Assembly: GCA_003598025.1 (NCBI GenBank)
Contig: QZKH01000005.1
Coordinates: 4,682 to 68,681, forward strand
Direction: 5' to 3'
DNA length: 64,000 nucleotides
DNA from: Candidatus Omnitrophota bacterium
GTDB taxonomy: Bacteria > Omnitrophota > Gorgyraeia > Gygaellales > Profunditerraquicolaceae
The position numbers and the translations under genes were made by a program. Below, piece after piece: positions 1 to 64,000 of the stretch (its first letter is position 1; every line of letters starts with the position of its first letter). The notes beneath the pieces are model-generated. The model was given only the letters and a program-made list of their open reading frames with translations. It made no database searches and was not told the origin of the DNA.

Positions 1-260
1 GTCCAGCCAGAGCAAAAGCCACAAGGAAAAGTTTTTATTTGGCCGCAAAAGAAAGCGTTTTCCATATACGCTTTAAGTATTTTTGGCATATCAACCCGTT
101 TATTAATTATCGGTGTTACTTTTTCCAGCATGCCTTTTATTGCTCTATTGGCTTCAGTAAGCTTGATACTCAATACTATATATTATGTACGTTTAATCCG
201 TATTTATAACAAAGAATATACAAATTTAAATAGAAATTCCAGTAGCGATAGCGGGAAATC
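1..260 (+). other. Hydrophobic helix segment (AFSIYALSIFGISTRLLIIGVTFSSMPFIALLASVSLILNTIYYV), probably the C-terminal transmembrane end of the preceding module, followed by the first SSSP linker at about 262-275
   Basis: Direct translation of frame 1. Two consecutive hydrophobic stretches of about 20 aa are followed by KSSSPISNSPFENNSPSLPP. Confidence 0.4.
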
Positions 261-3200
261 TTCTAGCCCTATATCTAATTCGCCATTCGAGAATAATAGT
301 CCATCGCTGCCGCCATTGGGAGGGCCTATTTTGAGCCATGATATGAGCGAGTATTGGATCCTTGATAAGGAGAAGACAGAAAAAGATTTTATTGTTTTGG
401 GGTTTGGTTTGAAAAAAGGAGTGTTAAATTTAGGTAACGCCGAAGTTATTATTACGCCATGGGCAGTAAGCATGAACTCCTGTTCGCTATATTCAGTTTA
501 CCGAAGCCAGAAACTTGCTCAAGAGATAGTCGTTCGTGCATATCAAGGAGCCTTACATATTGCGCGTAGGCTATGGTTGGACCCACCGCTTGTACATCGT
601 TTCTTCGGGCTTTCTTATACAGAATACATTAGGTTTCAAAATGACGAAGGTGCAGTTGAACCTGAATGGGCAGAATATCCTACTTATCCAATATTTAAGC
701 ACATAGGGTTATCCTATGGGCAAGATTTCCACGAGATATACGGTAACGCTGATATTATTAATCTTGATACTATTTTTGAGCAAAAGATTGGATTCTATCA
801 TCAGGGCGGGAATATGTATATGCGCACAGATGAATTTGAGCGCGTAGTTGAAGCATCTTGGAGGCAATGGTTTTATATCGATAGGGCTCATGCTGTGTAT
901 GGTAATAAGGTTGACCAGTATCCCTATCTTTCTACTTGGCCGGCACCTATACTGTTAATAAACGCAAGAGAAAAGGCAAAAGACCATAGAAACCATTTCT
1001 TAAAAGATAACGAGGATGATTTTATGCGGTTGCTTCCTGGTTCAGTTGATTTTAGTTCTATCTCCTCAGATATTCTGCATAGTCATTTAATGAGAGAAGA
1101 GTGGAAGATTGAAAAACATGCAATCTCGGAAGAGAGGAGGATATCGGCAGAAGGAGATTTCTATTATGGCGTTATATATATTGGCTCTATAAGTATGGTT
1201 ATTACTGATAAAGCAGTAGAATTTTATGTTTGTTCTGATATACATAGAGGGACTAATGCGGTAGGCGCGGGCAGAGAGATGATCACGCGGGCTTTCATTA
1301 CAAGTTATTTTATTGGTAAATACTTAGGTTTGAATCCAAAATGGGCGGTTGCCTATTATACTGTAGGCGAGAATGATGAGCGCGAGGAAGATAAGAATCC
1401 AGAATATCTCAACAGGCTTATTCGGCCTTGGTATGAGTTATTTTCCGAGCTCGGTTTTATGGTAAAAAACTTAAATGATAATTTAGCCAGAAGCTTTTTT
1501 GGAGATTCTGTAAGAAGGGGTCAATATTGGTATCGCGGCCTGGAAGATTTTATATACGATGCAGCAAACAATTGGATAGTTTGGTTTTATACAAACAAAA
1601 TAAGAGCTTTTGAGAGAAAGACCGGAAGTACTTCTATCAGCCATGATACGACGATGTCTGATTCTGATGTTGCTACTATTAGGAATGAGCTGGATGAGAA
1701 TTTAAGAAGAGTGTTGCGTAGGTTAAATTTTGTCGAAGCAAATACTGTATCGTTGTTCTCAAGTGGGAGTTCTCCCTGTGTTTCTAATCATCCTGAGCGA
1801 AGTGGAGGATCTATTCATCGTCGAAATTATTCGGCCTTCGGTATTAGAATGATATTAAATTCGGAGCTTCGCAGTAATTCTGTTATAAATATAAGACCAT
1901 TGCTTAATCCACAGGGTAGTTCACCTTCCGTGCCCCGTTGCAAGATATTTTGTATTCGGTTATATTCTACCTTCCGTGGCTGGTGGAGAATATTTCCAAT
2001 TTTGCAACGGGGCGTGATTGGTGGGGAGCATTTACTCTCTTTACAGAGAGGGCGTTTCGGTACGCAAGTATGGCTGCCCGCCTACCGGGCAGGCAGGCCT
2101 GCCTGCCGGACCATCGGCTTCGCCGAGAGGCGAGTAGGTAGGGTGGAGGACAATTGCGAGTTCTCAGCGGGTTCATCAATTTCATCATCGCCAATATCCG
2201 GATTAAGAATGCATGTATGGTTGGAGTGGCGTGCTTTCCTTGCCGGACTCCCTAAAGTTAAGCTAATCAGTAATGACCCCGTGTCTATGGAAATTGCCTT
2301 ACGCAGGTTAAATCACGGAGAGTACCCTGATCCATGCGGAATTGTTACTACATTCTCAAATCATCTTAAAATAGCAGCTTTAAAGTTAGCAGCGATAGAT
2401 AGTGATGAATCAAGAGATATATTAAGAGACCTTCAGGAGAGCATTGATTTCTTTAACATTATTTCAGATACAGCTGCGGATATAAAAAACATAAGCGCAA
2501 GGTTTATACATTACCGCCGTTATTCGCGCAGGTATTTACCACAGTTATGGAATGAGCAGGCAAGATTAATTCGGAATTTAATCAAATGTACTCTAGCCTA
2601 TCTTGAGAATAATAGAGAATTAACCATGCAGGTTTTTAATTTAACCGGTTTTTCTAATGAGATTCCGGTATTAGAAAGGGCGTTGTTGTACTTTCAGGAT
2701 ACCTTAGCACTGGCCCAAGGCCAGGCAATGCCGATAGAATGTAACGTGGAAGGCTTAAAGGCACAATTTAAAGACTTAGTTTCGGAGTATTCAGGTAGAT
2801 GTGATAAGTTGAAGCTGAGATTTAGGACTTACCATGGTGCGCGCCCTTTATTCATAAACGTCCCGAGAGTAATAGCTGTTGTTGCTAACTTGATTGAAAA
2901 TGCGCTGGATGCAAGAGTTGAGGGAAGGCCGTCTAAAATAGGGATCACTGTTAGTATGGATTATAAAAATGGCATTATAAGAATCGCCTGTAAGGATAAC
3001 GGCAACGGGATGGATAAATATGCCCTTACCCGGGCAAAGCACAGGGATTTTACCACTAAGGCCGAAGGCACAGGCTTAGGCCTAGCTGAGGCTCTGAATG
3101 TAACAGAAAAAGCACATAACGGCAAGCTTATTATCAGGTCGTTATTCGGAAGGTGGACGAAGGTAATATTAGTTTTGCGTTCATCAGATCCACTTGATTC

Positions 3201-9200: not shown

Positions 9201-12200
9201 CAGCCCATTAACTAGCAGGGACGGTTCTCAAACTAAAGCAGAAGCGTCCCCTATAGAAAGGGACAGTTCTCTCATGATTTCAGAACCGTCCCTTCCTAGA
9301 AAGAGTTCCAGCCCGATAGACCCAGAGAGATTACCATCAATCACAGTTAATAGATTAATTTCACATGAGATAAACTCGGATATAACCGATTGGTTGAGGA
9401 ATATCTTCTCATCATACGGAATATTTATAAAATACGGAATATCATATCTTGAAATAGACAGAATTCACATAGTAGGTTTAAACCGAGAGCCCGGAAGGGA
9501 GATTCTCCTGGTTGATCTTTTCACCGGGGAGCGCATTCTCCGTTTCCATGTTGTTTTCTATAAATCAGGGTATAACCTTGATTATGGTATTGATGACGGG
9601 TTTGAGAGGATAAGCACCAGGCTTATAGATATGCACAGAAATTTTAAGTTGATGAAATATTCCGAAGAATTAGCCGTATCGGGCATAGATACAGCCGAAA
9701 TCGTCAGATTGAATAATGAAGCATTCAGGGAGTGGATTGCCGGGCAAGAGTTTACATATTTCAACGGAGGCGGAGATGCTGCAGTCTATATAAATGATGA
9801 ACGCACTTTAGTGGTAAAAAATGTGCATGATTATAATAAGGAATTACTCAATATGCCTGCGCCTTTTAAGGGATACCTTCTTGCAGCAGAAAGATTAGGC
9901 CATTTAGTCGTGCGCTATGTGACACTGGAAGATTTGGTTGTTAAGGTCAGGAATAAAGACGGAGTGGTTGAAGAGAAACTGTTTAAGAAAGCAGTAATAC
10001 AAAAATTCGTTTACGTGTTTTTCAAAGAAGGAGTCTTTGATTCTTCTTTAGGCAAAAGAAGGTGTGAAGGTATATTGGCCGATACTATTGGGCAGGGCGA
10101 TATGCAAACAGCGAAAATGCTGATTGATGAATTCTTATCCAGTATAAGGGCGATTATGGCAAGAGGAATCGCTGACTGGGACATTAAAGCCGAGAATTAC
10201 GGATATGACCCTTCCGTGGGTTATGTCTGTTCTCTGGATATGGGTAAATTTATTGAAGCTTATAACCTGGATTTTCGTATGGCCAGAGTTTTTATAAGAA
10301 ACCTTCAGAGGACAAGAAATGAGATATATTCCTGGACTAAGGATGTTTTAGGGGAGAGAGAGGCAGTTGAGTTGCGCGATCATTTTACGGAAAGGGCAAA
10401 GGAAGTTTTTAGAGTCAGAAGCGATTTTACCTTTGACATAACAAGAAGTGTCGATGATCTTGAAGCAGAGAGCGAGTTGGAAGAAGATATTAAAGATATG
10501 TCTGATTACGAATTGAAAGAATGCCTTCCGGTCTGTTATACCGGTTTACCTGATATAAGAAGGATTGCCGTAAGAAATATCGCCGGGTACTTAAGGGGGT
10601 TAGGCAGGGCTCATAGAGGGTTAGCATTTGTATTAGCAAAGATTGGCTTTAACGAGAACGCAGCTACGTATGCAATGTTTCAGAATCTGGAGGTAAGATT
10701 TGTAGATTCTAAGATCCTGTATTTGCCAATTTATGACAATGATACTTATTGCGGTGTAAAGTTAAGAATGCTTGATAATGTTGCAACCGTTGAGGATATA
10801 CATGAGAGAAGGATTTGGGATAGGCTCAATGTAAGGCGGTATACAGAGGTGCTTAAAGAGGCAGTTAAGACGATAATAAGGTTTTATTATCCACAACAGG
10901 TCGTTTATAACACATTAGCAAGCGAATTCAGTCTTAAGATGGTAGACGTAGCTGACAGGCTTGATACGGCAAATCAGCTTGGCCGGATTAGCGGCGAGCT
11001 GGTGAATACTGAGCGCAGAAAAATATTGCTTAGTAATCTGTTTGGTATAACTGATACAAGTAATTTGGGCCCAAGGGTAAGATTAGCTTTTGATAACTTG
11101 AGGGAGAGAAGAAGGTACCCCTTTGATGTAGAATTACGGGATATATATGTCCGGGAAGAGGCAGGCAGAGTGCATACAGAACTCGTTGCTTTTGGTATGA
11201 CTACCAGAAAATGCCTTGAAATAGAGATGTTTTCTGACCTTATTAACCGCCTGAAAATACCAGAGAATATAGTTTTCCTTGCCATTGAGGAAGAATTAGG
11301 CCAGAGGGGAGGAGCAATATTCCTTGAGAAAGTTTATTTCCAGGGTACCCACGATGATCCTATTGTTCAGTCTGTATCAAGGCAGTTAAATTCTCTGTAT
11401 TCAAGGCAAAGAATGGGTATAGTTTCAGCGCTATTAGTAAAAATGGGATTAATTCCAGCTGAGCCAGTGGAGGTAACCAAGGCCAAAAGGCTGCAAAGAG
11501 AAAGATTAGCTGGTTTGCTTGAGCATTTAAAGAAGGTTAACGGAGGTAAAAATGGGAATGGTAAAACTTCGTCAAGCCCGATAAATAGTGTTATAAATAT
11601 TTTAGTTGTCAGGAAAGCGTTTTCTAAGTTGTTTGTATTATGGCCGTTGCGTGTAATTAAAGGATTTTTGTCTACCTTCTCCTCCTTCGCCCAGCATTTA
11701 TCATGCAGTGCTCCGGAGGACAAGATTACAGGTGCGCCTGAGTGCCGAAACAAAATGTTCTACCTTCCGTGGCTGGTGGGGAGCATTTACCTTCTTTTAC
11801 AAGAAGGTGTTTCGGCGCTCAGGCGTGGCTGCCTGCCTACCCGACCATCGGCTTCGCCTAGAGGCGAGCAGGCAGGGTGGGAGCGAAAACCTCGTGCAAC
11901 CGCGATATTTGCAACCACAATAGGCAGCCTCATAGCTGAAAAAGCAGGAGTTTCTCTTGATGCGCAATATATAGGTAAAGGATTATGGTTGCCTGTAGTG
12001 TTAGAGCGCATGATAGAGGGTCATAACATATTAAATGGTTGTAGATGTCCTTTATGCACTTCAAGCTCTAGCCCGATAAACTCCAGTATCAGGCTTGATG
12101 ATACCACAAAAGGGAAAATCTGCCGCCTTATGCGCCTTTATAAACAGAGTAAGATCACTATTCAAGAATTATCATTCGGGTTAAACAGGCTCACAGATAT

Positions 12201-54200: not shown

Positions 54201-57200
54201 TGATATAGCTAACGCAGCAGTAGCCAGGCGTGTTACCGCAGAGGCTGTAGAAGAAATAGCCAGGAATATCAAAGATGCAGAGGCTATCCTTAGGCAATAT
54301 AGCCTTGCCTGGGTAGAGGCATTAAGAGAAAACTTGCTGGAATTACGCGTGCATGCGCAGGATTTGTTGAATAACAAGCATCCGGATTATCTCAGCTATC
54401 CGGTTTTTCAGGAAACAGTTCTTAACGCAGGCCAGATATGTGAACAGATTAGCGGCTTCCGGGATGCAAACAACACTTTCCTTATAGAACTCTCGAGATT
54501 AAACAGTGATATAGTGGGTCAGATAGAGGGTACCCATGAAGAAGTGCCAATAGGCTTTATCGAAGAATTCGCCAGGCTGCAGGATCATACAAGGAATACA
54601 CTTCTGGAATTTTCATCGCAGGAGGATTGGCAGGATGCACTTACCAAGCATGGCGAGCTGTTGGTAGGACTTCAGAGAATGAACTCTTTTGAGAGGGCTA
54701 TAAGGAATTTAAGGAGTGAGATTGATTTTTTAAGGCAGTTACAAGGGTGGCATTTTTCTCCGGAAGTTGAAGATCAAGAGCGGGAATCCAGAGGTAGGCA
54801 GACCTCTGCCCTGGAAGAGGCAGAGTCTGTTATAAATGGTATTGCTACAGGCTATGCATCCCCTTATTTGCTTGGAGCAAAGTTAGAAGAGTTTGTAGAA
54901 AATTTACCGCGTATCAATGAGTTGATAGATGAAGCGGTGTGCGGTTTGATGGGTATTATAAAAGCAAAGAGGGATTTTATAATACCTCAGTTTAGAGTCA
55001 TACATGAGATGATCAGGGCGCTTAGGGCATGGATAGTTGAAGATTTATCTCCAAGATTTTCCGGAGACCAGGCAACATTAACTAGGAGCAAGAGGGTATT
55101 TGATGATCTGGAATCTTTGTTTACCTCTCTGTTTGCTAATCTAGACCAGTGGGGAAATGACTTGGGGCAAACGGAGTACGCAAGAGTAAATAATGAGTTG
55201 ATTCAGTTAGTCGCTTCATTCGACGGACCCATGGATGGGTTGCATGCGGCTCTATTTAACTTGGTAGATTCAGAAAATAATACTATCGGGGATAAACTTC
55301 TAAGGACATGCAGGGGCATAGTAACCCATTATGTAACCGGGCATCAACTTCAGGGAGTGATGCGGCAGATACCGTATAATATTATTTTTGACGTGTCTGG
55401 CGACGCATATGGATACCCTGTGGAAGTCAGAAGAATAAGAGTTGTCGCTGGCCGTTCGTATGATACGCTTTTAAGCGACTTAGTCGGCAGGGATGACCAG
55501 GTCAGGGCTGTGCAAGATGAATATAAAACCTCTATGAAGAAATGGCAGAATTTTAAGGGAAGAGGAGAATACCCTTCGGCTGAATTTGCTTTTATGATAA
55601 AAGATGCCTTTAGCTATTATATCCGGCTGATACAGGATACATCTGCTCGGCCGCTTAGGCCTGCTTCAGAAGTATTACAGGCTTATTATCAGAAGACTTT
55701 TGCTCAAGTGAAGCGTGTTTTTGATGCTTTACCTCTTGAACAAAATATTCTGGCTCCAGGTGAATATCGTGTTGGCGGAGGCATGCGTAATGAAGAGATG
55801 AAAGAAAAAGGGTTAGTAATACTCTTGTCTATGTTGAGAGATATTTCTGCAACTATAGAAGATATGCCTGACCCGGTAAGGATTAATTTTGAGTCGGAAG
55901 ATGAAGCTCTGGCGTTTTTAAGGGTAAGCTTAGAAGACCTGGAAGGAGATGCCCCAGTTTCTACTACCTCCTCCAGCCCCCTGAAGCCAGGACCGTTTTT
56001 GTCATTGACCACAGAAGTGTCTTCGGATGCCACTTTATCTCCGTTGGATGGGAGGCTAAGTATTTCCCGCAGAGCATTCTTTGTGACTGCTGCAGTAGCT
56101 TCGGTTACAGCCGCATTTCTAGGCGGCAGAAGAGCAGAACATCTTGCGCAGGAGAAGGCGCAGAAAATGCCGGGCAGCTTACGCCTGTTTAATGAATTTT
56201 CCGCGCAACGGCAGACCGTTCTCTTTATTCACGGCGGACTGGGTAGTGATTGTTCTTGCTTTGAGCTTTTTGTTGAACGCTTCAAGGATACGTTTAATCT
56301 CGCGGGATTTGATTATGACGATAGCCTGCCATTGGAAGCGGTATCCCGGAGATTCTCCGGGGAGGTTTTGAATGTGCGCCGCGCGCCGTCAATACCCGGT
56401 GGCTTAATCATCATCGCATACTCTTGCGGCACTACCATAGTCAGGGACGCAGTGCTTAACCGGAATCCCGGCAGAAAGTTATTTAAGGAAGATGCGGTTA
56501 TAGAGATTGCTCCTATTTTAGGCGGTTCTGCCAAAGCGCTGGGAGCTGGTTCAGGTTTGAAACAAGGCGTGTTGCATATTGATGAGTTATTTGGAGGGAT
56601 ATTCGGTATCAAAGGCAGCCCGGAATTAGCCAAGACTACAGATCCGAGCTGGTTTATCCAACAGGCATTATTTAACGAAGAGGCCTGTGATACTTTTGCT
56701 GTAAGCATTGGTAAGCATATTATTATCAGGGATGAGAATGATTCGCATGCCCCTTTTAACTTAGAGGATTCTCCTAGCAAAAGGGAGTTCTTGCGTTTAT
56801 ATGAGAACGGCCTGACCCGCGCGCCGGTTGTGATTAACTTACAATCCGTTGACGGAAAGAGTATGCATAGCAAAATGCTGAAGCAAAAGCCGGTGGTAGA
56901 CTTGGTTGAAGAGTTATTAATTCCTAAAGCTCAAGCTGTGCCTTTGTCCGTAAAGAATTCATCGAGTTCTCCTGTGCAGAAGGCGGGCGCGTTGTTACGT
57001 AGTTATTCACACGTAATGTTCTTTATGGATAAAGACGGCGTAGTGACTGATAATAATAGTTTCATCACGGAAGATATGTTGAGAGCGATATTTGAACTCT
57101 TAATTAAAGGTGCTTATATTTATATTATCACCGGAGGTACATTTGAAAACAGTATTCATAATGTCATTGAGCCCCTTGAAGAATTCGCCAATACTTTAGC

Positions 57201-60200
57201 CCGACCGGAGCTCTTAAATCATTTAGTTTATTTTGTTATGAATGGCAACTATGAGATTAGTTGGCACGATGGAATTCGTTCAGAGCGTTTCTGCGGAAAA
57301 GCGATTAGCGCTGGCGATGCAGGTAAATTAGCAAAGGCTTTTTCAATAGCTTTTATTGAAAAAGCCTCTAAGAAATTATCGCTACACGATAAAGGAATAT
57401 CGCAGGCAATTTATGACGCAGAAAATTTTGAGCAAGTAGCGACTCTTCTTTTAAGGTTCGCCGGTTTTTATCCGGCGGAAATTGGTCACGTGCGGGTTGA
57501 GGCAGGGCAGATACAAGATAAGCGTGCTGTGCGTACCTGTTCTATGGTGCTTGAGTTGAACAAATCCCCAGAACTTCAATCAAGCCGCTCGTTACAAAAT
57601 ATTGATCTTATGCGTGAAATACAAGCACGAGCTAAGGATTTGTTACCGCCTCAATTAATCTCCAGCGGACATATGTTCTTGGGGCCGACGTTTTTATCAT
57701 TCCAAACCTTATTAAAAGAGGATGTGTTGGCGGCTGTAACTTCTCGCTTTCCAACGGAAGCACGAATCTTCCGGGTTGGCGCCGGTGATACTGAGGTTGA
57801 TCTTGCTTTCCTCTCTAAGATTGCTGAAACACAAGGGTATGCGTATTTTGTTGGTGAGAGTATAGGAAAGCTGCCCAAAGGCGTAGTTGCTACTCGCTTG
57901 CGTGGCCCACCTGCACATTTGTTAGAACTCCGCGCTCTCGGCCGGGCGATTAGATTACAAGCTAGCAAAGAGATTGAAGTTGATTTAAGTGTATTATCTC
58001 GCCACCAAAGAATTACCTCAAGTTCTCCTATCCTTGGAAAGAATTTCTATGCTTCACCAAGTTCATCACGATTGCCGAATACAGAATACGCAGAAGTATA
58101 TAAAGGGAACGGTTCTATTTCTTTCGATGGCGCCAGCTCGCCCCTCGGAGAAACATCTCGGGGCGAAGCCTCGCCCGTTTCGCCAGCAAAGCTGGCGAAT
58201 GAGGCGGGCTCGCCGGTAGGGCCTATGTTTTTTCTGCTCAGAAGAAAGATTAGAAGATTGCAGCGTTCATTAGAACAGGTAATCGCCATTATCAAAAGAG
58301 AAGAGCAAAAAGCAGGGCAGCTGGATTTAGTGAAGATATATATCGTGGGAAGCTTTGCCAATGGAAAGTTAAAGAGGACTTCTGACCTTGATCTTGTATT
58401 TGAACCTACGCAACGAATGTTTGGGATATTCGGTAATATCTGGTGGGCATATTTAGATGAGTGGACAGAAGAAATCGAAAGCTCTATCAAGGAGATCGAT
58501 GTTGCCGGGTATCATGCACCGTATGGACGGTACACTCTTGTGGACAGGAATCGCTGTGCGGAGGATCACACGTATTTAGAGGGTCTTTATCGGGATTCGT
58601 TTCGCTCGCCTACAGGCGTCAACGCACAAGAACAAGGAGCCCCTATCTCTAAAAAGAGATACTCAAGGACAGAGGTATACGCTGGGGTATTAGCGGCAAG
58701 ATTATCTTTTGGCAGCAGAGTTATTGATTTAGGTTGCGGTAAAGGCAAACTCGGGTCTTTATTATCGGCAGATAGCGGGATTTCTTACGTAGGGATTGAC
58801 TTGAAACTAAGTAGGTTGCTCCGTGCAAAAAAACAAACTCCAACGGGTAAATTAATTTGTGCGAATGCCTCTTATTTGCCTATCGAATGCAACTCAGCAG
58901 ATGCAGTTGTGTGTATGCATATGATCGAACACTTGGATGAATCAGAAAGACGCCAGCTGTATTCTGAAATAAAACGAATAATAAACAAGGGTGGATATGT
59001 ATTAATTGAAACACCTATACAATCTCCCGGATCCAGATGTTTAAAATTCTTGAAGATTTTGTTCGGGGCAATCCCGCGAAGATCTCTTGATGAGACCGGT
59101 TTTTCAAAGTCGCATCGAGTTTGGTTTACCGAAGAACAATTGTCAAAGGAATTAGAAGAGAATGTATCCCCCTATGAAATAGTCGATCAGAATTATTATG
59201 TGTTTCATACAGTTATTTTTCCGCGAGGATGGTTTTTTGAGTCGGTGCAGAAGGTTCTAGACAGAATTGATAAGGGCAGCCTCATTAAGAGAAGAATCGC
59301 ATTAAGCAAATACGTTTTACTTAGAAACATTGGTTCGAAGGACGGTGAGCTAGGCGAACAACAAACGAAAGCGCGTCGAACCACCAGCTCGCCGGTGCGT
59401 GAAGATAAAGTTGAGACCCAAGTTATTCGGGAACTGAAACCAAAACTTAATTTTATTGAATCGAATCCGTTTTTGCTAGCTTTTGTAGGGGTAATTTTTG
59501 GAGCATTAGGAACGGTCTTCGGAAAAATTCTGGTAACACAGGCACCACCTGAGATTTATTTGATTTTCTTCTATCCTTTTGCATATCTATTGGTTTCAGT
59601 TATGTTCGCTTTATTTGGAAAAGAAAACAGAGGAATGCTGCAAAAGGCATTCCCTGAAAAATATTCTTGGCAAAGATTGGATAGCCGACGCTGGAAGCTC
59701 GCAATCATCTTAAATTCTCTTTTGTTATGCGTAGTAACCCCTATCTGTTATTTTGTCGGCTTAAAATTAATCTCGCCAATAAGCGCAAGCGTTATTTCCC
59801 AGCTTATGCTTATTTTCACCATAATCTTGTGTAACTTATTTCTAAAAGAGAGGATAGGTTTATCAAAAGCTTCGGGGGCTATGCTGGTTGTAGCTAGCGT
59901 GCTCTTTGTGATTATTGAGCCCGAGATTAATTCGCCTTCTGGAATATCCCTATTTAGCTTGTTTAATTCATTTAAGAACGTGGGCACCATACTAATTTTG
60001 TTAAGTTGTCTTTCACTTAGTATCCAGCAGGTTATCGGGCGCCTAATCGTTACTACGCTTAAGAAAGAGGATAGTAATATTCAGATTTCACTAATGAAAA
60101 TAGGTTATCTTTTCGGCATGATATTTATGCTGCCTTTCTTTTTGTTGTGGAACTTTATATGGAATAATCTCGATTTTGTTTCTTTATGGAGTAGCTACTC

Positions 60201-63200
60201 GGAGGCATTAACGCATTATCTATTTGCGCTGATTCTGGTTAATGTTGTACTTTTTACTACACATTGGTATATAAGATACAAAATACAAGGGGTTAGCCGG
60301 TTCCATCAGTCCACTTTTGCTACAGTGTTAGCGACCTCTCCCGGTTTTGTCTGTTTTTTTTCCTACCTTATATTAAATAATGTTGCGATTTCAGGTTTAG
60401 TGTTATTAGCTGTTGGTACGGTTTTCTTGGGAGTGATTCTATCTTCGGATCCGTTTTTAATACTAAAGGCAAAGCAAAGCTATAATTATCAAATCCTGCA
60501 ATGGGCAGGGCGAAAGAAGACGATAACCGAAAGAGTCCAGTTGATTTATAATGCGCGCGTGGAGACTAAAACCAAGCAAATGAAACTCACGGATTATATT
60601 GAAAGAGAATTGATTTCTCGTTTGCCAGCCGGGACAAAATTAAAATCCATAGTAGTACGCGACAGTTTCCTTTGGTCTCCTCAACCGGATGATATTGATA
60701 TTTATGTGGTAGTTGAGGAACCGACGGATGTGGCTATGCCCCACAATAACATTGCTTTTAAACAGGCAAAAGAAGAAACTGCCCCGAAGCTAGCATTTTC
60801 GTTAGGCGCTTCACTCGAAAGTATCAATAAGATAGACCTCTGGTGCGTGGGTTTAAAACATCTTCAGGGCAACCCTTTACAGCGGGCTTGGGTATTAAGA
60901 CGAGGAGTTACTATATATGGGGATAATTTATTTGACAAGTTTAATGATGATCCGGTGTATAGATACTGGGTTGTAGAGAGGGCCTTAGAGCAGGTAGATG
61001 AGGAGATAAAAAATGGAGATGTGCGTAAAATAATTCATAGGTTAATGTTGGCCGTATTTTCTTTAGGCGAGATCGATAATTCATATCGGCAGGAAGCAAG
61101 GGGTATAGTCACAGGCTTATGCCAACAAATATACAACATGCCGGTTGATTCGAAGGCAAGAGAATGTCTTTTTGCTGAAATGCAGGTTTGTTATGAAAAG
61201 GTTAGGGATAGATTTAATCATCTGGAAGATGCGGAAAGGGTAAATAGCGCAAGGTTAGCAAAGGAATTTACCACTTTATGGAGACGATGGAAAAAGAAAG
61301 GCTTCCCCCCGGGAGAATTTGACGCGGATGGTTCTTTTACGGCGCAGGCGGAGCGCACTCTATCAATATATCCTAATAGCAAGCAATGGGTGCTTGATAT
61401 GATACGTTGTGATATTAATAATTTCCCAGTTGAAGAGATTGAACAGCTGCGGCTTGATGCTAAAGTGAAGCGTTTGTTATCTTCTCCAGTAGCATTATTT
61501 TATAATAAAGGGGATGGTTCTATTTTTTCTAACGGCGCCAGCTCGCCCGTAAACAGCAGATTTATTGATTTATTAAGCCATATTAATGATCCGCGCCAGT
61601 ATGACGTTAACCTCCTTGATCAGGAACATGTTCTCTCAAGCAGCGCTTTCATCCGCGAAGGCGCCAAAGGGTTAAAAGGAAATGCGCTGCTTTTGGGGTT
61701 GGGTAATGCCCATGAGTATACCATAGAGGTGTTAGCTGATCTTTATAGACAATTTGATAAGCTTATCATTGTAGATTTGGATGAAAACACTATCCAGCGG
61801 ACGCTGGGGAGGCTTGATAAGCATCTGAGGCGAAGCGGCGTATCGCTGGATCAGGCAAAAATCGAGATTAGAATAATGGATTTAAGCGGAGTGATAGGGG
61901 CTATGGCGATGCTTGTGGACGATATAATCGCGCGCGAAAGGAACCTCCAGGTAATCCAGCATCAAATTCTGCGTCTTCTTAGTGAACCACCGGAAGCGTT
62001 TGAGGTGTCTTGTGCAAAGGCCGCTGGTGCCTCTTATGTTGTTTCTTCCCTTGTTGCGACACAGCCTGCCAAGTTACTCGATGCATATATTGTAAGCATG
62101 ATTGAAGAGAAATTTGGATTAGGCTCTGCAGATTCTTTTGTCCTTTCAGAACAGTTTAGGGTCAGAAAAGCAAAATTTGAATCTCAGCTTCATCAGAAAC
62201 ACGTGCAAGATTTGATGCGGTGGGTAGATAAGCACGGATGCATTTATTTTTCCGATTCGTTTGCTGAAACTAATTTAAGGTATAGCCCGGGAAATATACA
62301 GCCTCTCAGTATTGTTAGCCCTGTGCTTACCTTAATCGATGATAGTGTGGTCAATACATTGCAAAGGCTGTGTGAAACAGAAAAATCAGGAGAATGGTGG
62401 TACCTTTACGATTCTGATCTTATCAGATTTGGAATTGGAAGCGCATTTTATGTGAAGGCGTGGATTTTTAAGCCCAGGGATATAGGAGAAGCTCTTGAAA
62501 CTAATCCGGAGGTTGCTCCCCGCGTTTCCTCGCCCCTGGCGCCAGCATTGTTGCGCATAGGCACTCGTTGGGTTCCGCTTGCTGCCGCAAGTTCTCCGCT
62601 GGCAAGAGATGGCGACTTGAGTTTTAAAATTGAAACTGATGATTACGCAGTTGTATTTGATACCCTTTATTCACTAAAGAACCGCGGCAATATTATTGAA
62701 TTTTCTCAAATTCAGGATGCTTTTGTAAGTCAAAAACCCCAGAAAAAAACAAATTCCGTAAGAATTGTGAATAGGGTCCTTAAATCATTCATCCAGGCCG
62801 GTCTCGCCCAAGAAGTCGGCTTTGGGTATAGCGCGACTATAACAGATGGGGATGAAATCAAGGGTATCCTTAGCGACATTGAGCATCAATCAAAGTTATC
62901 AGAGGAAAAGCTTAAAGAGATAGCATCCGGTTGGTTTCTTGATGTGGGTGAAATAACCCTTTATCACTCTGCTACGTTAGAAAAAATACTTAGTATCATC
63001 GAATTCGGATTTTATGCTCTCCCTGGTGAATTTACGCTTACTTCTGAAAGCCATCGCTTCGGTAAAGTCTTTCGTTTTCGTAAAGGAAAAATTCTCATTG
63101 TATTTAATGTCCCTGTAGGGATGATAGATTTTTCTCATCATTCCTATTATCTGAAAGGTTTCGCGCTTAAATATCCAAGGGCTAAAACTCCAATTATCCC

Positions 63201-64000
63201 AGAAAGTATGGCTGTTGGTTTTCAGAAAGCATGGCAGATGTATCTTGCCGGAGAAAATACCGACAGTAATGCCCAAAAAATGCTGGAATTAGGCCAGCGT
63301 GGAGAATTAGCGCATCTTTCGCCGCAGATGATTAATGCCGAGAAAACTATATGTCTGAATTCTTGCAAAGTTGAAGAGGGAGAATTAGATGAGGGCTCTT
63401 TATGGCTGGTTAAAGAAGCTCTTGTTAGAGGCAACCCCCGTGATTCATCCGGGTCAAAAACAGGGAGCTCTCCTTTAGGCAAGGATGGTGAAACCAAAAC
63501 TATTACTATTTACGGTAAAGATATCAATGCCAATGGAACAGCACTCTCTTTAATAGGGGATGCGGTAAAGAGCGATGCTGAGGCGATAATGAAGTTGAGC
63601 GCAAGGCTTGAGAGGCTCGGATATATTCCCGAAGAAGAAACACTTTCAATACAGGATGTTGAATGGCAAGTATCTCACGGGGAGTTGTATATTCTCAGAG
63701 TTTACCGGGATAAAGATGGCGTAAATGGGTATGCTTATGGAAAACTTGACGCTAATGCCTGGGTTATCCCTCATATAGTAGTTGATGAAAAATCAGAAGG
63801 CCGCGGGATAGGAAGAGCCTTATTTGTTGATATGCTTATGCAATTGGAGAAACGTAAGGCAACTGAGATCCGTCTTACGACCGCAAGCGATGCTATGGAG
63901 CATATTGTATTTACTTCAGGGTTGTTCCAGGGGATGGGTGAGAGGAAATTCAGATTTGTATCCGGACATGTAAATGATGGCAAAGATATAATTAGGGATG
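1..64000 (+). CDS. Internal fragment of a giant mosaic multidomain protein gene, partial at both ends and at least 21,333 codons within the window
   Basis: Frame 1 stayed open in every stretch I translated by eye, including the start through about 5400 and most of the feature regions below. No ORF-track entry lies in plus frame 1, as expected for an ORF that runs off both ends. The translation reads as globular domains with classical catalytic motifs (see sub-features). All minus-strand and off-frame ORFs are short. Confidence 0.85.
1964..2143 (+). repeat. GC-rich palindromic interspersed element, copy 1 (about 180 nt), inserted in a linker of the giant ORF
   Basis: It shares the 5-prime end ttctaccttccgtggctggtgg and the 3-prime core ggaccatcggcttcgccgagaggcga...gggtgg with copy 2 at 11757-11886. 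It contains the perfect palindrome ggcaggcaggcctgcctgcc and the tetraloop hairpin tcgcc-gaga-ggcga. The flanking coding DNA is AT-rich. Confidence 0.7.
2845..3180 (+). other. Histidine-kinase-like ATPase domain (HATPase_c) module
   Basis: N-box NLIENALDA at 2887-2913, G1 box DNGNGM at 2995-3012, G2 box GTGLGLA at 3067-3087. The module ends at linker GEASSPIS at about 3250. Confidence 0.7.
3380..3560 (+). other. HD-domain phosphohydrolase-like module
   Basis: EHWRIIGWLHDLGLMHTDE, with the HD dyad at 3421-3426, in the usual HD-domain context. The module is bounded by the SSPIS linker (about 3255) and the SSPVT linker (about 3900). Confidence 0.5.
6510..7900 (+). other. GT-B glycosyltransferase, glycogen/starch-synthase (GlgA)-like
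   Basis: N-terminal NVLVCSMEATLLMHWLYGAMGGGLGVLMGSF, where the KTGGLGDV-like motif GGGLGV sits at 6574-6591. PDIIQVHESFPAV at 7015-7056 is the conserved PDIIH-H-D/E motif of GlgA/GT4. Confidence 0.5.
8560..8960 (+). other. Second HATPase-like module, of the anti-sigma RsbW/SpoIIAB serine-kinase type
   Basis: IGLDKGPGIKDIESALRLGFSTYGSNGKGLYIL at about 8800-8900, with a DxGxG G1 box and a GxGxGL G2 box. It is flanked by linker ASSPLEG (about 8355) and linker GSSSPVT (about 8990). Confidence 0.45.
9218..9293 (+). repeat. Two adjacent copies of a 33-nt perfect-stem hairpin unit (gggac[g/a]gttctc-N13-[a]gaa[c/g]cgtccc). A third copy lies at 22709-22741.
   Basis: Copy 1, 9218-9250: gggacggttctcaaactaaagcagaagcgtccc. 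Copy 2, 9260-9293: gggacagttctctcatgatttcagaaccgtccc. Copy 3, 22709-22741: gggacggttctcaaaacaaggcagaaccgtccc. The 10-11 bp stems are conserved while the loops vary. In protein terms that gives RDGSQTKAEAS, RDSSLMISEPS and RDGSQNKAEPS. Confidence 0.75.
9750..10300 (+). other. Protein-kinase-like fold module (atypical)
   Basis: Glycine-rich stretch FNGGGDAAVY followed by LVVK at about 9760-9830. Catalytic-loop-like DWDIKAEN at 10180-10197. DFG-like DMG at about 10240. Confidence 0.4.
11757..11886 (+). repeat. GC-rich palindromic interspersed element, copy 2 (about 130 nt)
   Basis: It has the same termini as copy 1 and lacks a 38-nt segment that in copy 1 is flanked by ggtgg direct repeats. It contains the stem ctgcctgc...gcaggcag around the tcgcc-taga-ggcga hairpin. 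Relative to the host ORF it is read in a different frame from copy 1, so the two encode unrelated peptides. Confidence 0.7.
12790..13180 (+). other. HAD-superfamily phosphatase module
   Basis: The module starts right after linker ISSPVPQ. HAD motif I reads VAIWDMDETL (DxDxT) at about 12796-12825. Motif IV reads IVIGDNPGLDIGCDVIVDD at about 13120-13180. Confidence 0.55.
15900..17150 (+). other. Long coiled-coil region of about 400 aa
   Basis: Heptad-like E/K/Q/L/R-rich sequence with no Pro or Gly, for example IEAERRKQQEIDGQIADIPGKLSLLQAEVERINAELAEE ... LRAELLAATAEREQLQNRLSEITKRILELS. Confidence 0.55.
20690..21540 (+). other. Complete histidine-kinase catalytic core (HisKA dimerisation/H-box plus HATPase_c)
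   Basis: H-box SQFKHDVNNRLTAIVGNIDM with His at 20743-20745. N-box LLNLFVNARQA at about 21262-21294. G1 QDNGPGIP at 21361. F-box FDLFFTTK. G2 GSGMGL at 21439-21456. The module ends at linker AASSPLE at about 21550. Confidence 0.75.
21640..22700 (+). other. GH130-like (DUF377 / 5-bladed beta-propeller glycosidase or phosphorylase) module
   Basis: LLTPRDGVYWEKGGVLNPAVVIRDVKGLDGNIHFIYRADEGG at 21760-21880 matches the conserved NPA-AV...DG...YLLYRA N-terminal blade of GH130 and the GH43/32 superfamily. The module begins after linker SSSPVKY. Confidence 0.5.
23200..23650 (+). other. Possible zinc-metallopeptidase-like module (HExxH)
   Basis: GTCAHEIMHNIL with HEIMH at about 23440-23456, and a downstream HEFMSD. 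No other peptidase landmarks were recognised. Confidence 0.25.
24050..25690 (+). other. GH13 alpha-amylase-family catalytic domain (TreS / GlgE / amylosucrase-like)
   Basis: All four GH13 conserved regions are present: region I VILDFVTNH (24325-24351), region II GGGLRADLA (24631-24657), region III VVAES (24799-24813), region IV FVENHDE (24994-25014). The module ends at linker TSSSPLN at about 25695. Confidence 0.75.
26990..27780 (+). other. Kinase-like module (maltokinase / aminoglycoside-phosphotransferase / protein-kinase fold)
   Basis: Gly-loop LGQGLEGTVF with FALKVA at about 27067-27150. Catalytic-loop-like HGFEAPVGDIGLPNTLV at about 27400-27460. VKLIDPFP (DFG-like) at about 27481-27505. 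It is followed by linker AASSPIT at about 27790. Confidence 0.5.
27880..29420 (+). other. GH77 4-alpha-glucanotransferase (amylomaltase, MalQ-like) module
   Basis: PVYSLPSFFGEPKPGQREYGIGDLGDAAKEFVLLLAQAGQRYWQISPLNPTDGNNCSYRTDSVFALDYKIV at 27901-28100. This is the diagnostic GH77 N-terminal signature (YGIGDxGD ... LPLxP ... SPY). The module is about 510 aa and ends at linker SVSSPLE at about 29745. Confidence 0.75.
30590..31260 (+). other. PHP-domain (polymerase/histidinol-phosphatase family) module
   Basis: VDMHLHSAYSDCASDSVAHMVYEAYRRGLKTIAISDHQSFDG at 30589-30710. The H-x-H motif and the later Asp/His ligands are in the canonical PHP order. IPVLAHPGKW at about 30990. The module ends at linker HSSSPIL at about 31347. 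Confidence 0.65.
31540..31900 (+). other. Second HD-domain phosphohydrolase module
   Basis: RRHALRTALIAIFIARHLPLTRESLIDLVTAALAHDLGKGYD with HD at 31648-31653. Downstream lie SRHHPRY and HVADEIDA, which fit the HD metal-ligand pattern. Confidence 0.6.
32400..32900 (+). other. Third kinase-like module
   Basis: FHSKGVFHRDLSEEEVFIDPATGGVSFIDFNIA, with HRD at 32716-32724 and the DFG-equivalent DFN at 32779-32787. Confidence 0.45.
33055..33114 (+). repeat. Conserved linker cassette of about 35 nt (gaccgttt[c/t]tg[t/c]ca[c/t]tgaccagagaagtgcc) encoding PFLSLTREVPP. Further copies lie at 46674-46708 and 55990-56020.
   Basis: 33080-33114 gaccgtttctgtcactgaccagagaagtgccccct. 46674-46708 gaccgtttctgccactgaccagagaagtgccccct. 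55990-56020 ggaccgtttttgtcattgaccacagaagtgtc. The peptides are PQGPFLSLTREVPP, PQRPFLPLTREVPP and KPGPFLSLTTEVSS. The copy at 33055-33084 is preceded by a hairpin cggtcc-N17-ggaccg. Confidence 0.7.
33130..34740 (+). other. Six tandem XRE-family (Cro/C1-type) helix-turn-helix repeats of about 85-90 aa each
   Basis: A recurring pattern G[YW]G(Q/D/K/E)R(L/I)...(R/K)...G(L/M/I)(S/T)..(E/D)L(A/S)....(V/I)S..(T/Y)I...E.G.....(P/I)......LA..L.V....L..G appears six times, for example RLAEVRSLQKLSKEELSFLLKEKIEPWQLTRWE and RRIKSLMDNYGWSAPRLARRLKVSSTTVYAWIH. Consecutive repeats are joined by (T/N)DEPDW-type spacers. Confidence 0.6.
35230..35760 (+). other. P-loop NTP-binding kinase module (uridine-kinase / phosphoribulokinase-like)
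   Basis: Walker A AIDGSSSVGKTT at 35269-35301 lies about 25 aa after linker KASSPLS (about 35190). The module ends at linker CISSPLD at about 35780. Confidence 0.55.
35820..36460 (+). other. Cation-diffusion-facilitator (CDF, CzcD/ZitB-like) integral-membrane transporter module
   Basis: His-rich N-terminus HHSHEHSLYHTHIHTDH right after the linker. The CDF signature ISGSVALTGDAGHMFTDAMG sits at 35941-36000. Several hydrophobic helices follow. The module ends at linker SVSSPAN at about 36495. Confidence 0.65.
36540..37060 (+). other. GNAT N-acetyltransferase module
   Basis: Motif A LSVRDDYSGRGIGTALLG at 36796-36840. Confidence 0.55.
38278..38336 (+). repeat. In-frame 15-bp tandem repeat, about 3.7 copies of gattcctggcaaggc, encoding (GDSWQ)x3
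   Basis: Read directly: ggc gattcctggcaaggc gattcctggcaaggc gattcctggcaagat gattcctgc. It translates as G DSWQG DSWQG DSWQD DSC. Confidence 0.9.
38290..39000 (+). other. Calcineurin-like metallophosphoesterase module
   Basis: LGDVIWGG followed by VVRILGNHEYDLY, with the GNHE signature at 38479-38490. Confidence 0.5.
42060..43060 (+). other. FkbH-like / HAD-IIIC phosphatase-like domain with a C-terminal GNAT-like region (paralog A)
   Basis: CIVLDCDGVLWSG (42079-42102) ... LLAINSKNDANDVEAVL ... IKANWQDKATNLRAIAEELGIGIDSLVFFDDSPQER. The later LGFTQ segment is typical of the FkbH domain family. Confidence 0.55.
45250..46260 (+). other. FkbH-like / HAD-IIIC domain with a C-terminal GNAT-like region (paralog B)
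   Basis: CLVLDCDGLLWAG (45265-45288) ... LLAINSKNNPEDIGSVL ... VKANWQDKAENLREIAQELNIGTENLVFLDDSLRER ... QRLGFSK. Copy B is collinear with copy A at an estimated 55-60 percent amino-acid identity. Confidence 0.55.
47200..47930 (+). other. HExxH zinc-metalloprotease-like module preceded by a signal-peptide / lipoprotein-like hydrophobic segment
   Basis: Immediately after linker NSSSPVS comes WRSIILLTALLITVNFDCGN, a hydrophobic h-region followed by Cys. HEMAGH lies at 47686-47703. Confidence 0.4.
49990..50800 (+). other. Radical SAM module
   Basis: FLGPGTCNLKCEPC contains the CxxxCxxC motif at 50059-50082, about 40 aa after linker ESSSPLQ. The GGEP-like IGETFVNP is at about 50190. Confidence 0.6.
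56030..56950 (+). other. Twin-arginine (Tat)-like signal peptide followed by an alpha/beta-hydrolase (lipase / PGAP1-like) module. The segment is noticeably GC-richer than the rest of the window.
   Basis: LSISRRAFFVTAAVASVTAAFLGG has RR at 56068-56073, the SRRxFF consensus and an Ala-rich h-region. VLFIHGGLGSDCS follows. The nucleophile elbow is IIAYSCGT at 56416-56430. One 60-nt line in this module came to about 62 percent GC when I counted it by eye, against about 20 percent for an AT-rich line elsewhere (41041-41100). Confidence 0.55.
57000..57900 (+). other. HAD-IIB (Cof-like) phosphatase module
   Basis: Motif I FFMDKDGVVTD at 57028-57051 lies about 15 aa after linker NSSSSPVQ. Motif IV GAGDTEVDLAFL is at about 57781-57810. 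Confidence 0.6.
58270..58600 (+). other. Minimal nucleotidyltransferase (Pol-beta-fold NTase) module
   Basis: IYIVGSFANGKLKRTSDLDLVFE. The GS motif is at 58348-58353 and the DxD motif at 58384-58392. Confidence 0.6.
58690..59120 (+). other. Class I SAM-dependent methyltransferase module
   Basis: Motif I VIDLGCGKGKLG at 58720-58752. Post-I YVGIDL. Motifs II and III CANASYLPIECNSADAVVCMHMIEHL. The sequence ...GGYVLIET follows. Confidence 0.65.
59450..60470 (+). other. Polytopic membrane module with a transporter-like pattern (tentatively DMT/EamA-like)
   Basis: The module begins about 20 aa after linker TTSSPVR. It has roughly ten hydrophobic helices, for example FLLAFVGVIFGALGTVFGKIL and LVLLAVGTVFLGVILS. 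I recognised no soluble-domain motifs. The DMT/EamA label rests only on the number and spacing of helices and the small loops. Confidence 0.4.
63650..64000 (+). other. Second GNAT acetyltransferase module, truncated by the window end
   Basis: VIPHIVVDEKSEGRGIGRALFVDMLMQLEK, with motif A RGIGRAL at 63802-63822. Confidence 0.5.

Follow-up and report, generated by a model that had tools for sequence, protein, structure and literature searches.

The window analyzed here is a 64,000-nucleotide (nt) stretch from a Candidatus Omnitrophota bacterium (assembly GCA_003598025.1, contig QZKH01000005.1, positions 4,682 to 68,681), and it carries a segment of one giant open reading frame (ORF) in which protein-sized modules follow each other through a short motif, Ser-Ser-Pro followed by Ile, Leu or Val (SSP[ILV]). 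Frame +0 of the plus strand contains no stop across 21,333 codons (1..63999) and is open at both ends of the window, whereas the other five frames contain 695-2,044 stops each. The single open frame of at least 21,333 codons described in an earlier note, written from the sequence alone, is borne out by this computation, and the window covers an inner part of a longer giant gene. The guanine-plus-cytosine (GC) content is 0.39-0.43 all along, the GC skew is positive and constant, and codon usage is uniform along the ORF, with AGR accounting for 68% of Arg codons and ATA for 42% of Ile codons. Nothing credible is encoded in the other frames of the window. The ORFs of at least 130 amino acids (aa) outside the giant frame, namely 15309-15917 on the minus strand and five more of 141-186 aa, are all antisense, and these six are probably by-products of the coding frame.

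A single frame and its recurrent junction motif

The motif SSP[ILV] occurs at 58 sites in the ORF, compared with 1.06 ± 1.1 in residue shuffles, and the longer form SSSP[ILV] at 26 sites, compared with 0.06 expected. Both the 55-60 sites counted by eye in the earlier note and its chance estimate of 1-3 were therefore right, and comparison with shuffled sequence, which the note had named as a way to refute the motif, leaves it far above background. Ordinary ORFs taken from elsewhere, 287,440 aa in total, contain the motif seven times, i.e., about 0.5 per 21,333 aa, and the best tripeptide enrichment in such control ORFs reaches P ~1e-5 to 1e-7 vs 3e-48 in the window ORF. The logo reads [S26 A16 V6 T6]-S-S-P-[L24 I17 V17], the 14 residues on either side being otherwise unconserved, and none of the one-residue variants (TSP, SAP, SSA, etc.) is enriched. 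Both Ser positions are encoded by TCN as well as AGY codons, roughly in whole-ORF proportions. Such heterogeneous codons indicate that selection acts at the peptide level, and the codon tally agrees on this point with the earlier note, which had remarked on the varied Ser and Pro codons. No conserved nucleotides were found beyond the motif codons when checked to 30 nt, and a junction signal at the DNA or RNA level is rejected on these two grounds. A frameshift leading to a stop at the junctions is likewise rejected, as it fits less than half of the sites.

The 58 junctions, 12 nt each and all on the plus strand like the features described below, have their first codons at positions 262, 2185, 3256, 3898, 5602, 8356, 8995, 9199, 9307, 11572, 12067, 12751, 13501, 15097, 17311, 19066, 19663, 20071, 21547, 21691, 22756, 23995, 25699, 26593, 27790, 29743, 31345, 32206, 33121, 35188, 35779, 37084, 37804, 39073, 39211, 40042, 40714, 43936, 43996, 46630, 46861, 47194, 47938, 48439, 49243, 49939, 51526, 52252, 55972, 56965, 58021, 58135, 59386, 61480, 61540, 62527, 62590, and 63466. 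The motif coordinates given in the earlier note are correct against this full list. The ten residues on either side of the junctions exceed the background in hydrophilicity and in their share of disorder-promoting residues. The chain thus delimited has 59 units or more, ranging from about 20 to 1,240 aa, with a median of 292. At three places two junctions stand close together around a short spacer peptide, 20 aa apart at 43936..44007 and at 61480-61551, and 21 aa apart at 62527-62601; within the window alone this pairing is weakly significant (P = 0.04). Motif pairs 20-22 residues apart also recur in several lineages, whatever the motif, with enclosed peptides of ~17 aa, e.g., at aa 3608/3629 of P0131, aa 2959/2981 and 6432/6454 of L009, and aa 760/782 of L008 (related giant ORFs that are described below).

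Regarding expression signals, no stop interrupts the frame in the linkers or the short spacers, and nothing resembling independent gene starts is enriched in it. In-frame ATG codons within 150 nt after junctions number 42 vs 56 ± 8, and a Shine-Dalgarno-like sequence with ATG is found after none of the junctions vs 2.1. A scan of 20001-40000 gives promoter- and terminator-like sites no more often than shuffled sequence does. It follows that the modules do not have initiation and termination signals of their own, and the hypothesis that they are translated independently is rejected. The ORF is probably translated as a single unit.

Modules, spacers, and in-frame repeats

Searches of the window with Pfam and NCBIfam models yield about 20 unrelated domain matches. 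These cover together 16% of the residues, which is why the description of the chain as about 50 housekeeping-type enzymes was overstated; most modules have no detectable family, and the statement that each looks like a whole enzyme could not be confirmed. What did hold is the placing of the boundaries. Domain matches occupy 3,495 aa, in which chance would place 9.5 of the 58 junctions; none lies there (P = 7e-5), so that no site interrupts a detected domain. Full-length NCBIfam models start 5-22 aa past a junction or stop 0-20 aa short of one. A self-BLAST of the ORF reveals few internal repeats, and on this basis the window cannot be explained as a repetitive protein. Judged from sequence, many units are the equivalents of whole free-standing proteins, among them enzymes, regulators, and membrane transporters.

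Two units contain histidine-kinase domains. In the first, the catalytic HATPase_c domain (2797..3183) has its model C-terminus ~20 aa before junction 3256; in the second, a DHp/CA region (21019..21543), the model C-termini project to aa 7179-7185 and the junction lies at aa 7183. A complete unit of the GH130 type (beta-1,2-mannobiose phosphorylase-like; 21730..22707, aa 7244-7569) covers model positions 5-294 of 296 between the junctions at aa 7231 and 7586, beginning 5 aa after the former and stopping 15 aa before the latter. Other carbohydrate-related matches are the alpha-amylase catalytic domain (24097..25152) in the module of aa 7999-8566 and a unit combining kinase-like, GH77 amylomaltase, and PHP domains (26593..31344), which is cut at its domain boundaries by junctions 27790 and 29743. 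The GH77 match spans model positions 7-495 of 496 and starts 22 aa past a junction. Free-standing homologues of ~1,630 aa (40-43% identity), which are ordinary genes on their own contigs with unrelated neighbors on both strands, are colinear with aa 8875-10443, i.e., with the stretch between the junctions at aa 8865 and 10449. An alpha-glucan-phosphorylase-like stretch and a nucleotidyltransferase motif also belong to the domain inventory.

Further along the chain, an HD phosphohydrolase domain (31549..31899) lies in the module of aa 10449-10735, and a module at 33121..35187 holds a repeated array of XRE-type helix-turn-helix (HTH) domains. This 689-aa module has at least three, and probably six or more, diverged HTH domains, an unusual arrangement for this DNA-binding domain. 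The next module, of 197 aa (35188..35778), has a Walker A motif, GSSSVGKT, 30 aa after its junction and is assigned on this motif only, with no family match. It is followed by a CDF (ZitB-like) membrane domain (35830..36456), whose model position 1 is 11 aa after the junction, and by a GNAT acetyltransferase domain (36652..36882). Between these two lies the variant junction SSPA, a lone VSSPA (36496..36507, aa 12166), the CDF match ending at aa 12152 and the GNAT match starting at about aa 12190-12218. Two FkbH/HAD-IIIC copies, 47-60% identical, are found at 42067..43035 (module aa 13572-14645) and 45250..46221 (module aa 14666-15543). A CxxxCxxC motif (50059..50082), 41 aa after junction 49939, is radical-SAM-like and has no Pfam match at E<=0.01; the radical-SAM triad read by the earlier note is thus present as a motif, while the Radical_SAM family match is absent. 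A Tat-like twin-arginine signal (56065..56130), consisting of SRRAFF and a hydrophobic region 32 aa after junction 55972, was recognized by eye and has no model match. The module at 56965..58020 bears the HAD motif I, DKDGVVTD, 20 aa after its junction. The remaining matches are a domain of a methyltransferase dependent on S-adenosylmethionine (SAM) (58651..59157), an EamA-type transporter module (59386..61479) with 10 hydrophobic segments, the first of them 18 aa after the junction, and a second, weakly matching GNAT-like domain (63679..63888). In a crude hydropathy scan, which is not a topology predictor, 23 hydrophobic 19-mers are found in the ORF, mostly in the CDF and EamA modules. A 1,400-aa query made of the Walker A module, the CDF module, and two modules without assignment returned no homologue in a search that depends on shared words.

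Several of these features are of the kind expected near a protein N-terminus. Walker A at +30, the HAD DxD motif at +20 (twice), CxxxCxxC at +41, the His-rich CDF tail, SRRAFF with its hydrophobic region (h-region) at +32, and a separate signal-like h-region at +5 all follow junctions; apart from the radical-SAM assignment, the positions of these motifs at their usual distance past the junctions are as the earlier note had them. Its view that a junction replaces the start codon is supported in this sense, the junction being located where a stop and a start would be.

The chemistries in the chain can also be read in another way, namely as those of an effector array, a polyprotein that is exported to a prey or host and processed there as in MARTX or polymorphic toxins. 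The literature portrays Omnitrophota as predatory or parasitic nanobacteria whose giant ORFs are tied to attachment and prey degradation, and kinase-like, GNAT, HAD phosphatase, methyltransferase, HD, and nucleotidyltransferase modules are typical of effectors. However, no RTX repeats, CPD, translocation, or secretion domain is found in the window (both ORF ends lie outside it), and histidine kinases, XRE regulators, CDF and EamA transporters, and glycogen-type enzymes look self-directed, which makes this reading improbable.

Beside the modules, the frame runs through DNA repeats and hairpins. The 36-aa spacer between junctions 9199 and 9307 is filled by two tandem GC-rich hairpins (9217..9293, z = -2.4) with arms GGGACGGTTCT and AGAACCGTCCC, at 9217-9250 and 9260-9293. 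Two more members of the family are found, one at 21651-21685 in the 48-aa spacer between junctions 21547 and 21691 (21547..21702, z = -1.7) and one at 22708-22742, directly after the end of the GH130 unit and just before junction 22756. These hairpins resemble intergenic terminator- or REP-like elements kept in frame, and no copy of them occurs among 87 relative loci. Hairpins as a general feature of the junctions are rejected, since unusual structure is seen in only 2/9 short spacers. Across the window, the strongest local hairpin (58166-58215, -30.7 kcal/mol for 50 nt) lies 30 nt after junction 58135. A GC-rich repeat of ~130-190 nt is present at 1962-2146 and 11755-11880, with 77-96% identity, a predicted multi-stem structure, and three compensatory pairs between the copies. 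As the two copies are read in different frames, it is conserved as nucleic acid and not as protein. No family reaches its gathering score in an Rfam and tRNA scan of the whole window, and a permissive RNA-family scan of nt 1850-2300, which includes the first copy, gives sub-threshold snoRNA matches only. By comparison, a 63-nt direct repeat (33056-33118, 46649-46711, and 55967-56029; 60-89% identity) is in the same frame each time and encodes (G)PFL(S/P)LT(R/T)EV beside three junctions. A 44-nt repeat (58100-58143 and 61505-61548, 84% identity) makes up most of two short spacer peptides, YKGNGSISFDGA and YNKGDGSIFSNGA, both ending in a junction, and a tandem 15-nt repeat, AAGGCGATTCCTGGC, occurs in ~4 copies at 38276-38333 inside the module of aa 12602-13024. 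The hairpin family, the 63-nt repeat, and the ~130-190-nt repeat resemble former intergenic elements, or else signals at the RNA level, from which stops have been kept out.

Relatives with the same, another, or no junction motif

A search with the FkbH domain of module 37 retrieves 11,560 relatives. Ordinary ones are proteins of ~570-640 aa from many phyla, while among the top matches are proteins of 2,500-7,100 aa that take up whole contigs and are annotated 'partial [Candidatus Omnitrophota bacterium]'. A genome scan also places metagenome-assembled genomes (MAGs) of Omnitrophota on top, and the best relatives of the FkbH module are giants of such MAGs with 39-51% identity. The nearest relatives thus point to Omnitrophota, with which the AGR- and ATA-rich codon usage is compatible; the window contains no phylogenetic marker. 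SSP[ILV] recurs in four independent assemblies, with 27 sites in 13,133 aa (P0199, P0063, L013, and L011) vs 0.45 expected, and position -1 is again occupied by small residues (S12, T4, V4, G4, A3). The carriers are the fragments P0054 and P0199 (GCA_028710905.1 and GCA_028713695.1) and P0063 (GCA_023818885.1), L013 from Omnitrophota DeMMO2_11, where the 3' end of the ORF is inside the locus, and L011 from a MAG labelled 'uncultured Planctomycetia' (CAZFPS010000035.1), where the ORF is open at both ends. N-terminal signatures follow SSP in these relatives too, such as the receiver motif VLVVDD at +3 and the HAD motif KCLVLDADG at +8. The giant of L013 is followed, at 12495-20584, by three genes with PilZ domains, a GH94 phosphorylase, and a sugar ABC transporter, in keeping with the published link of giants to carbohydrate import. 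Another relative locus, L087, is a scaffold with an N gap.

The recurrence bears on a technical origin of the frame, be it an assembly chimera, sequencing error that removes stops, or a misjoined gene neighborhood. While an exact 50-mer of the window has no match in the genome, metagenome, and viral collections searched and no close relative above ~50% identity is at hand, which would be in line with an artefact, errors cannot clear one frame of stops over 64 kb and leave 8-10% in the others, nor can they make 58 peptide motifs with heterogeneous codons. Since motif and architecture are shared by independent assemblies that come from different studies, and codon usage is coherent throughout, this explanation is effectively refuted.

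Other giants are without SSP[ILV] and have a sharp word of their own at protein-sized spacing. A-RTAT-[T/V/I] is found at 9 sites in the complete 4,302-aa ORF P0074, and x-RTST-[A/I] at 5 sites in the ORF adjacent to it in the same genome. DGG occurs 22 times in the complete 4,815-aa ORF P0131, vs 1.9 expected, and 9 times in P0176, and x-SSS-[I/L/V/M] is present at 18 sites in L009 (and is also seen in L015, which overlaps L009, and in L008). At the RTAT and DGG motifs, too, the codons proved heterogeneous on inspection. Equivalent modules are bracketed by whichever word the lineage uses. The truncated CDF membrane domain lies between SSPL and VSSPA in the window and between two DGG in P0131, and the FkbH unit is enclosed by SSP in P0063 (605 aa), SSS in L009 (610 aa), RTAT in P0074, and DGG in P0131 and P0176. 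All Pfam domains of P0131 fall between consecutive DGG sites. Lineage-specific motifs in the same role would imply that site and protease co-evolve. In L006 (JGI 3300009431, Ga0120401_1001988), two giant ORFs stand in tandem (751-13659 and 14036-23659+), separated by a 376-nt AT-rich gap. Their motifs, ARTAT and xRTST, are sisters, which suggests that one recognition system of the genome serves both ORFs.

Enrichments of SGDT, MPW, RLFH, and GGHS in other long proteins were also considered as junctions and rejected, since they correspond to repeated segments or domain motifs (a carrier motif of nonribosomal peptide synthetases; an HExxH domain). The giant ORF of L016 (CAZAPC010000003.1) repeats RLFHE[FL][CG]H, of HExxH type, at aa 4042, 4476, 5702, and 6522, which may be a repeated metallopeptidase-like domain.

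Proposed processing of the chain and comparison with known systems

The best explanation of the motif, to which a probability of about 0.55 is given, is that it constitutes the cleavage site of a proteolytically processed polyprotein. The giant ORF would be transcribed and translated as one unit, and [small]-S-S-P-[L/I/V], exposed in a short hydrophilic linker, would be recognized by a dedicated endopeptidase. As in viral polyproteins, this enzyme would free the individual proteins together with some short spacer peptides, and it would be encoded outside the window, either elsewhere in the ORF or in the genome. Processing is preferred because start codons and Shine-Dalgarno sites are not enriched after the junctions and because a Tat-like signal and transporters stand between cytoplasmic enzymes; this signal, the signal-like h-region, and the CDF and EamA transporters need a free N-terminus or separate chains. 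The supporting pattern consists of a strict word at the termini of protein equivalents, devoid of start and stop signals, with paired sites around short peptides and lineage-specific words. Two properties of processed polyproteins are found directly, namely several protein equivalents in one ORF and a short conserved junction motif under peptide-level selection. The polyprotein reading of the earlier note thus stands for the chain of protein-equivalent modules and gains from the motif in four other assemblies, while its cleavage step is still an inference. More tentatively, and with somewhat less than an even chance, this clade may make a substantial share of its proteins as cellular polyproteins, each gene supplying dozens of enzymes, regulators, and transporters; co-evolving proteases would cut these at short, lineage-specific motifs (SSP[ILV], SSS[ILVM], ART[A/S]T, DGG). 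The other giants would then use SSS[ILVM], A-RT[A/S]T, and DGG in the same way.

Several observations weigh against processing. First of all, the cognate protease expected of a processed polyprotein did not appear in the part of the ORF, the complete giants, and the neighborhood that were searched. No peptidase domain is present in the window (Pfam, NCBIfam), in the complete motif-bearing giants P0131 and P0074 (Pfam), or downstream of and next to the giant of L013 (Pfam on the neighbors), and the adjacent protease that the earlier note proposed to look for was accordingly not recovered. A regular-expression search for catalytic signatures over the window gives a single HExxH, in module 21, for which a word-based homologue search found no match and a single-sequence AlphaFold model (pLDDT 39) is unusable for fold assignment. 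Moreover, 84% of the residues have no family match, so most modules are defined by the motif alone. The junctions at aa 9264 and 9915 split a three-domain protein that is a single chain in its ~1,630-aa relatives, which already carry [S/T]PL at the position of aa 9915. The CDF unit is without its cytoplasmic C-terminal domain and is followed by the lone VSSPA and then by GNAT. Non-coding-like repeats and hairpins are kept in frame, one of them read in two frames, for which the logic of a polyprotein offers no explanation. Finally, the giants P0050, P0058, L010, L014, L016, L019, and L020 show no junction motif, and any generalization is therefore limited to some lineages.

The missing protease and the lack of start-codon enrichment after junctions could also point to separation during translation, in which the nascent SSP-[ILV] would cause bond skipping or release at the ribosome in the manner of 2A/StopGo peptides; selection at the peptide level and a Pro adjoining the putative break would suit such a mechanism. 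Nevertheless, known 2A signals are ~18-30 residues long, end in D(V/I)ExNPG-P, and are not known to act on bacterial ribosomes. Here only five residues are conserved, the 2A consensus is absent, nothing upstream is shared, and motifs devoid of Pro (RTAT, DGG, SSS) fill the same role elsewhere, so that skipping appears very improbable.

The main rival to processing is a mega-protein that remains uncleaved and acts as a membrane-anchored multi-enzyme scaffold, with SSP[ILV] as a hinge or a linker signature for Ser phosphorylation or O-glycosylation, possibly a proline-directed 'SP' site used by the kinase-like modules. It agrees with the published view of single giant membrane-associated proteins, of which one has been detected through its peptides, and with the segments resembling transmembrane helices, the hydrophilic linkers, and the failure to find a protease in the window or two complete giants. 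However, structural linkers are normally variable, whereas a 4-5-residue word is invariant here, tolerates no variants, and is replaced by unrelated words in other lineages. Paired motifs around 20-22-aa peptides are hard to account for as hinges. In addition, a Tat-like signal, a signal-like segment, and complete transporters lie between modules that depend on ATP or SAM or bind DNA, which for a single chain gives an implausible topology. An uncleaved scaffold is therefore regarded as unlikely, but it deserves more consideration than the other alternatives.

With regard to precedent, giant ORFs are known from most Omnitrophota, which are tiny bacteria (Seymour et al., 2023, PMC10066038; West-Roberts et al., 2023, 10.1101/2023.11.21.568195; Nielsen and Lui, 2026, 10.64898/2026.06.07.730766), and ORFs of 10,000-147,000 codons are common among them; Nielsen and Lui count 916 giants of at least 10,000 aa. 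Published examples include a 39,678-aa protein in V. archaeovorus and others of up to 85,804 and 147,155 aa. An 'Archaeovorin' / 'multi-enzyme metabolic' class has been distinguished, with methyltransferase, histidine-kinase-type ATPase, GNAT, HAD, sugar metabolism, and radical SAM domains. A giant mixed-enzyme ORF is thus an already described kind in Omnitrophota, and the gene-neighborhood polyprotein that the earlier note took to be unprecedented is less novel than thought. Like the published giants, the ORF extends far beyond 20 kb (here at least 63,999 nt) and runs off both ends, its Pfam families agree with those of the 'Module 1/2' described in print (methyltransferase, HK/HSP90 ATPase, GNAT, HAD, sugar metabolism; radical SAM as a CxxxCxxC motif only), and it has scattered putative transmembrane helices, low conservation between giants, and Omnitrophota MAG giants as nearest relatives. 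Unlike them, it has a strict motif delimiting protein-equivalent modules, and the C39 or S8 peptidase and SecA-like (SecA-DEAD-like) domains reported at the N-termini of Omnitrophota giants are not seen in the window segment, the N-terminus lying outside.

The papers on these giants speculate about cleavage, call the cleavage points and protease-recognized motifs unknown, and give no linker motif, and a literature search found no paper joining Omnitrophota with 'polyprotein'. Neither the junction motif and its recurrence nor the counterparts in other lineages appear to have been described so far. The post-translational fate of the giants is an acknowledged open question, and a boundary motif makes it directly testable whether, and where, they are cut. 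It also permits structure prediction and annotation to proceed on units cut from the giants in silico, and the correlation of motif type with gene families offers a route to the protease. If cleavage does take place, the motifs would supply the map, so far lacking, of where the largest known proteins are cut, and both the 'largest proteins' and the coding capacity of reduced genomes would have to be recounted. To our knowledge, such a polyprotein strategy of gene expression is so far known only from viruses, and its large-scale use in a cellular organism would be the first.

In function, viral polyproteins, in which cleavage motif and protease co-evolve, come closest to the system proposed here. 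Those cut by potyvirus NIa, picornavirus 3C, and nidovirus 3CL, as well as pp220 and pp62 of African swine fever virus (GG-X site), each have a cognate protease. As in the window, there are many mature proteins per ORF, strict junctions that vary with lineage, embedded membrane proteins, and spacer peptides between paired sites. The differences are the cellular genome, ~60 or more units in 64 kb of a longer ORF, a metabolic, regulatory, and transport cargo, and the fact that no protease module was found. MARTX toxins also combine heterologous functional domains through short linkers in one giant bacterial protein, where they are cut by the CPD cysteine protease at Leu-(A/S/G), but they deliver ~3-5 effectors and no transporters or regulators. 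The analogy drawn with them in the earlier note is unsupported, the Pfam and NCBIfam searches of the window giving no RTX repeats, CPD, or toxin-type trafficking domain. Regarding double-glycine leader processing by C39 peptidases, the DGG word of P0131 and P0176 ends in Gly-Gly and C39 is reported at the N-termini of giants; the motif of the window is SSP[ILV], however, P0131 has no C39, and classical double-glycine leaders are N-terminal and single. The nuclear polyproteins of Euglena and dinoflagellates (light-harvesting complex proteins, LHCP; the RuBisCO small subunit) are cellular and have short conserved linkers cut by a dedicated protease, but whereas they are made of tandem copies of one protein, the units joined in the window are almost all different.

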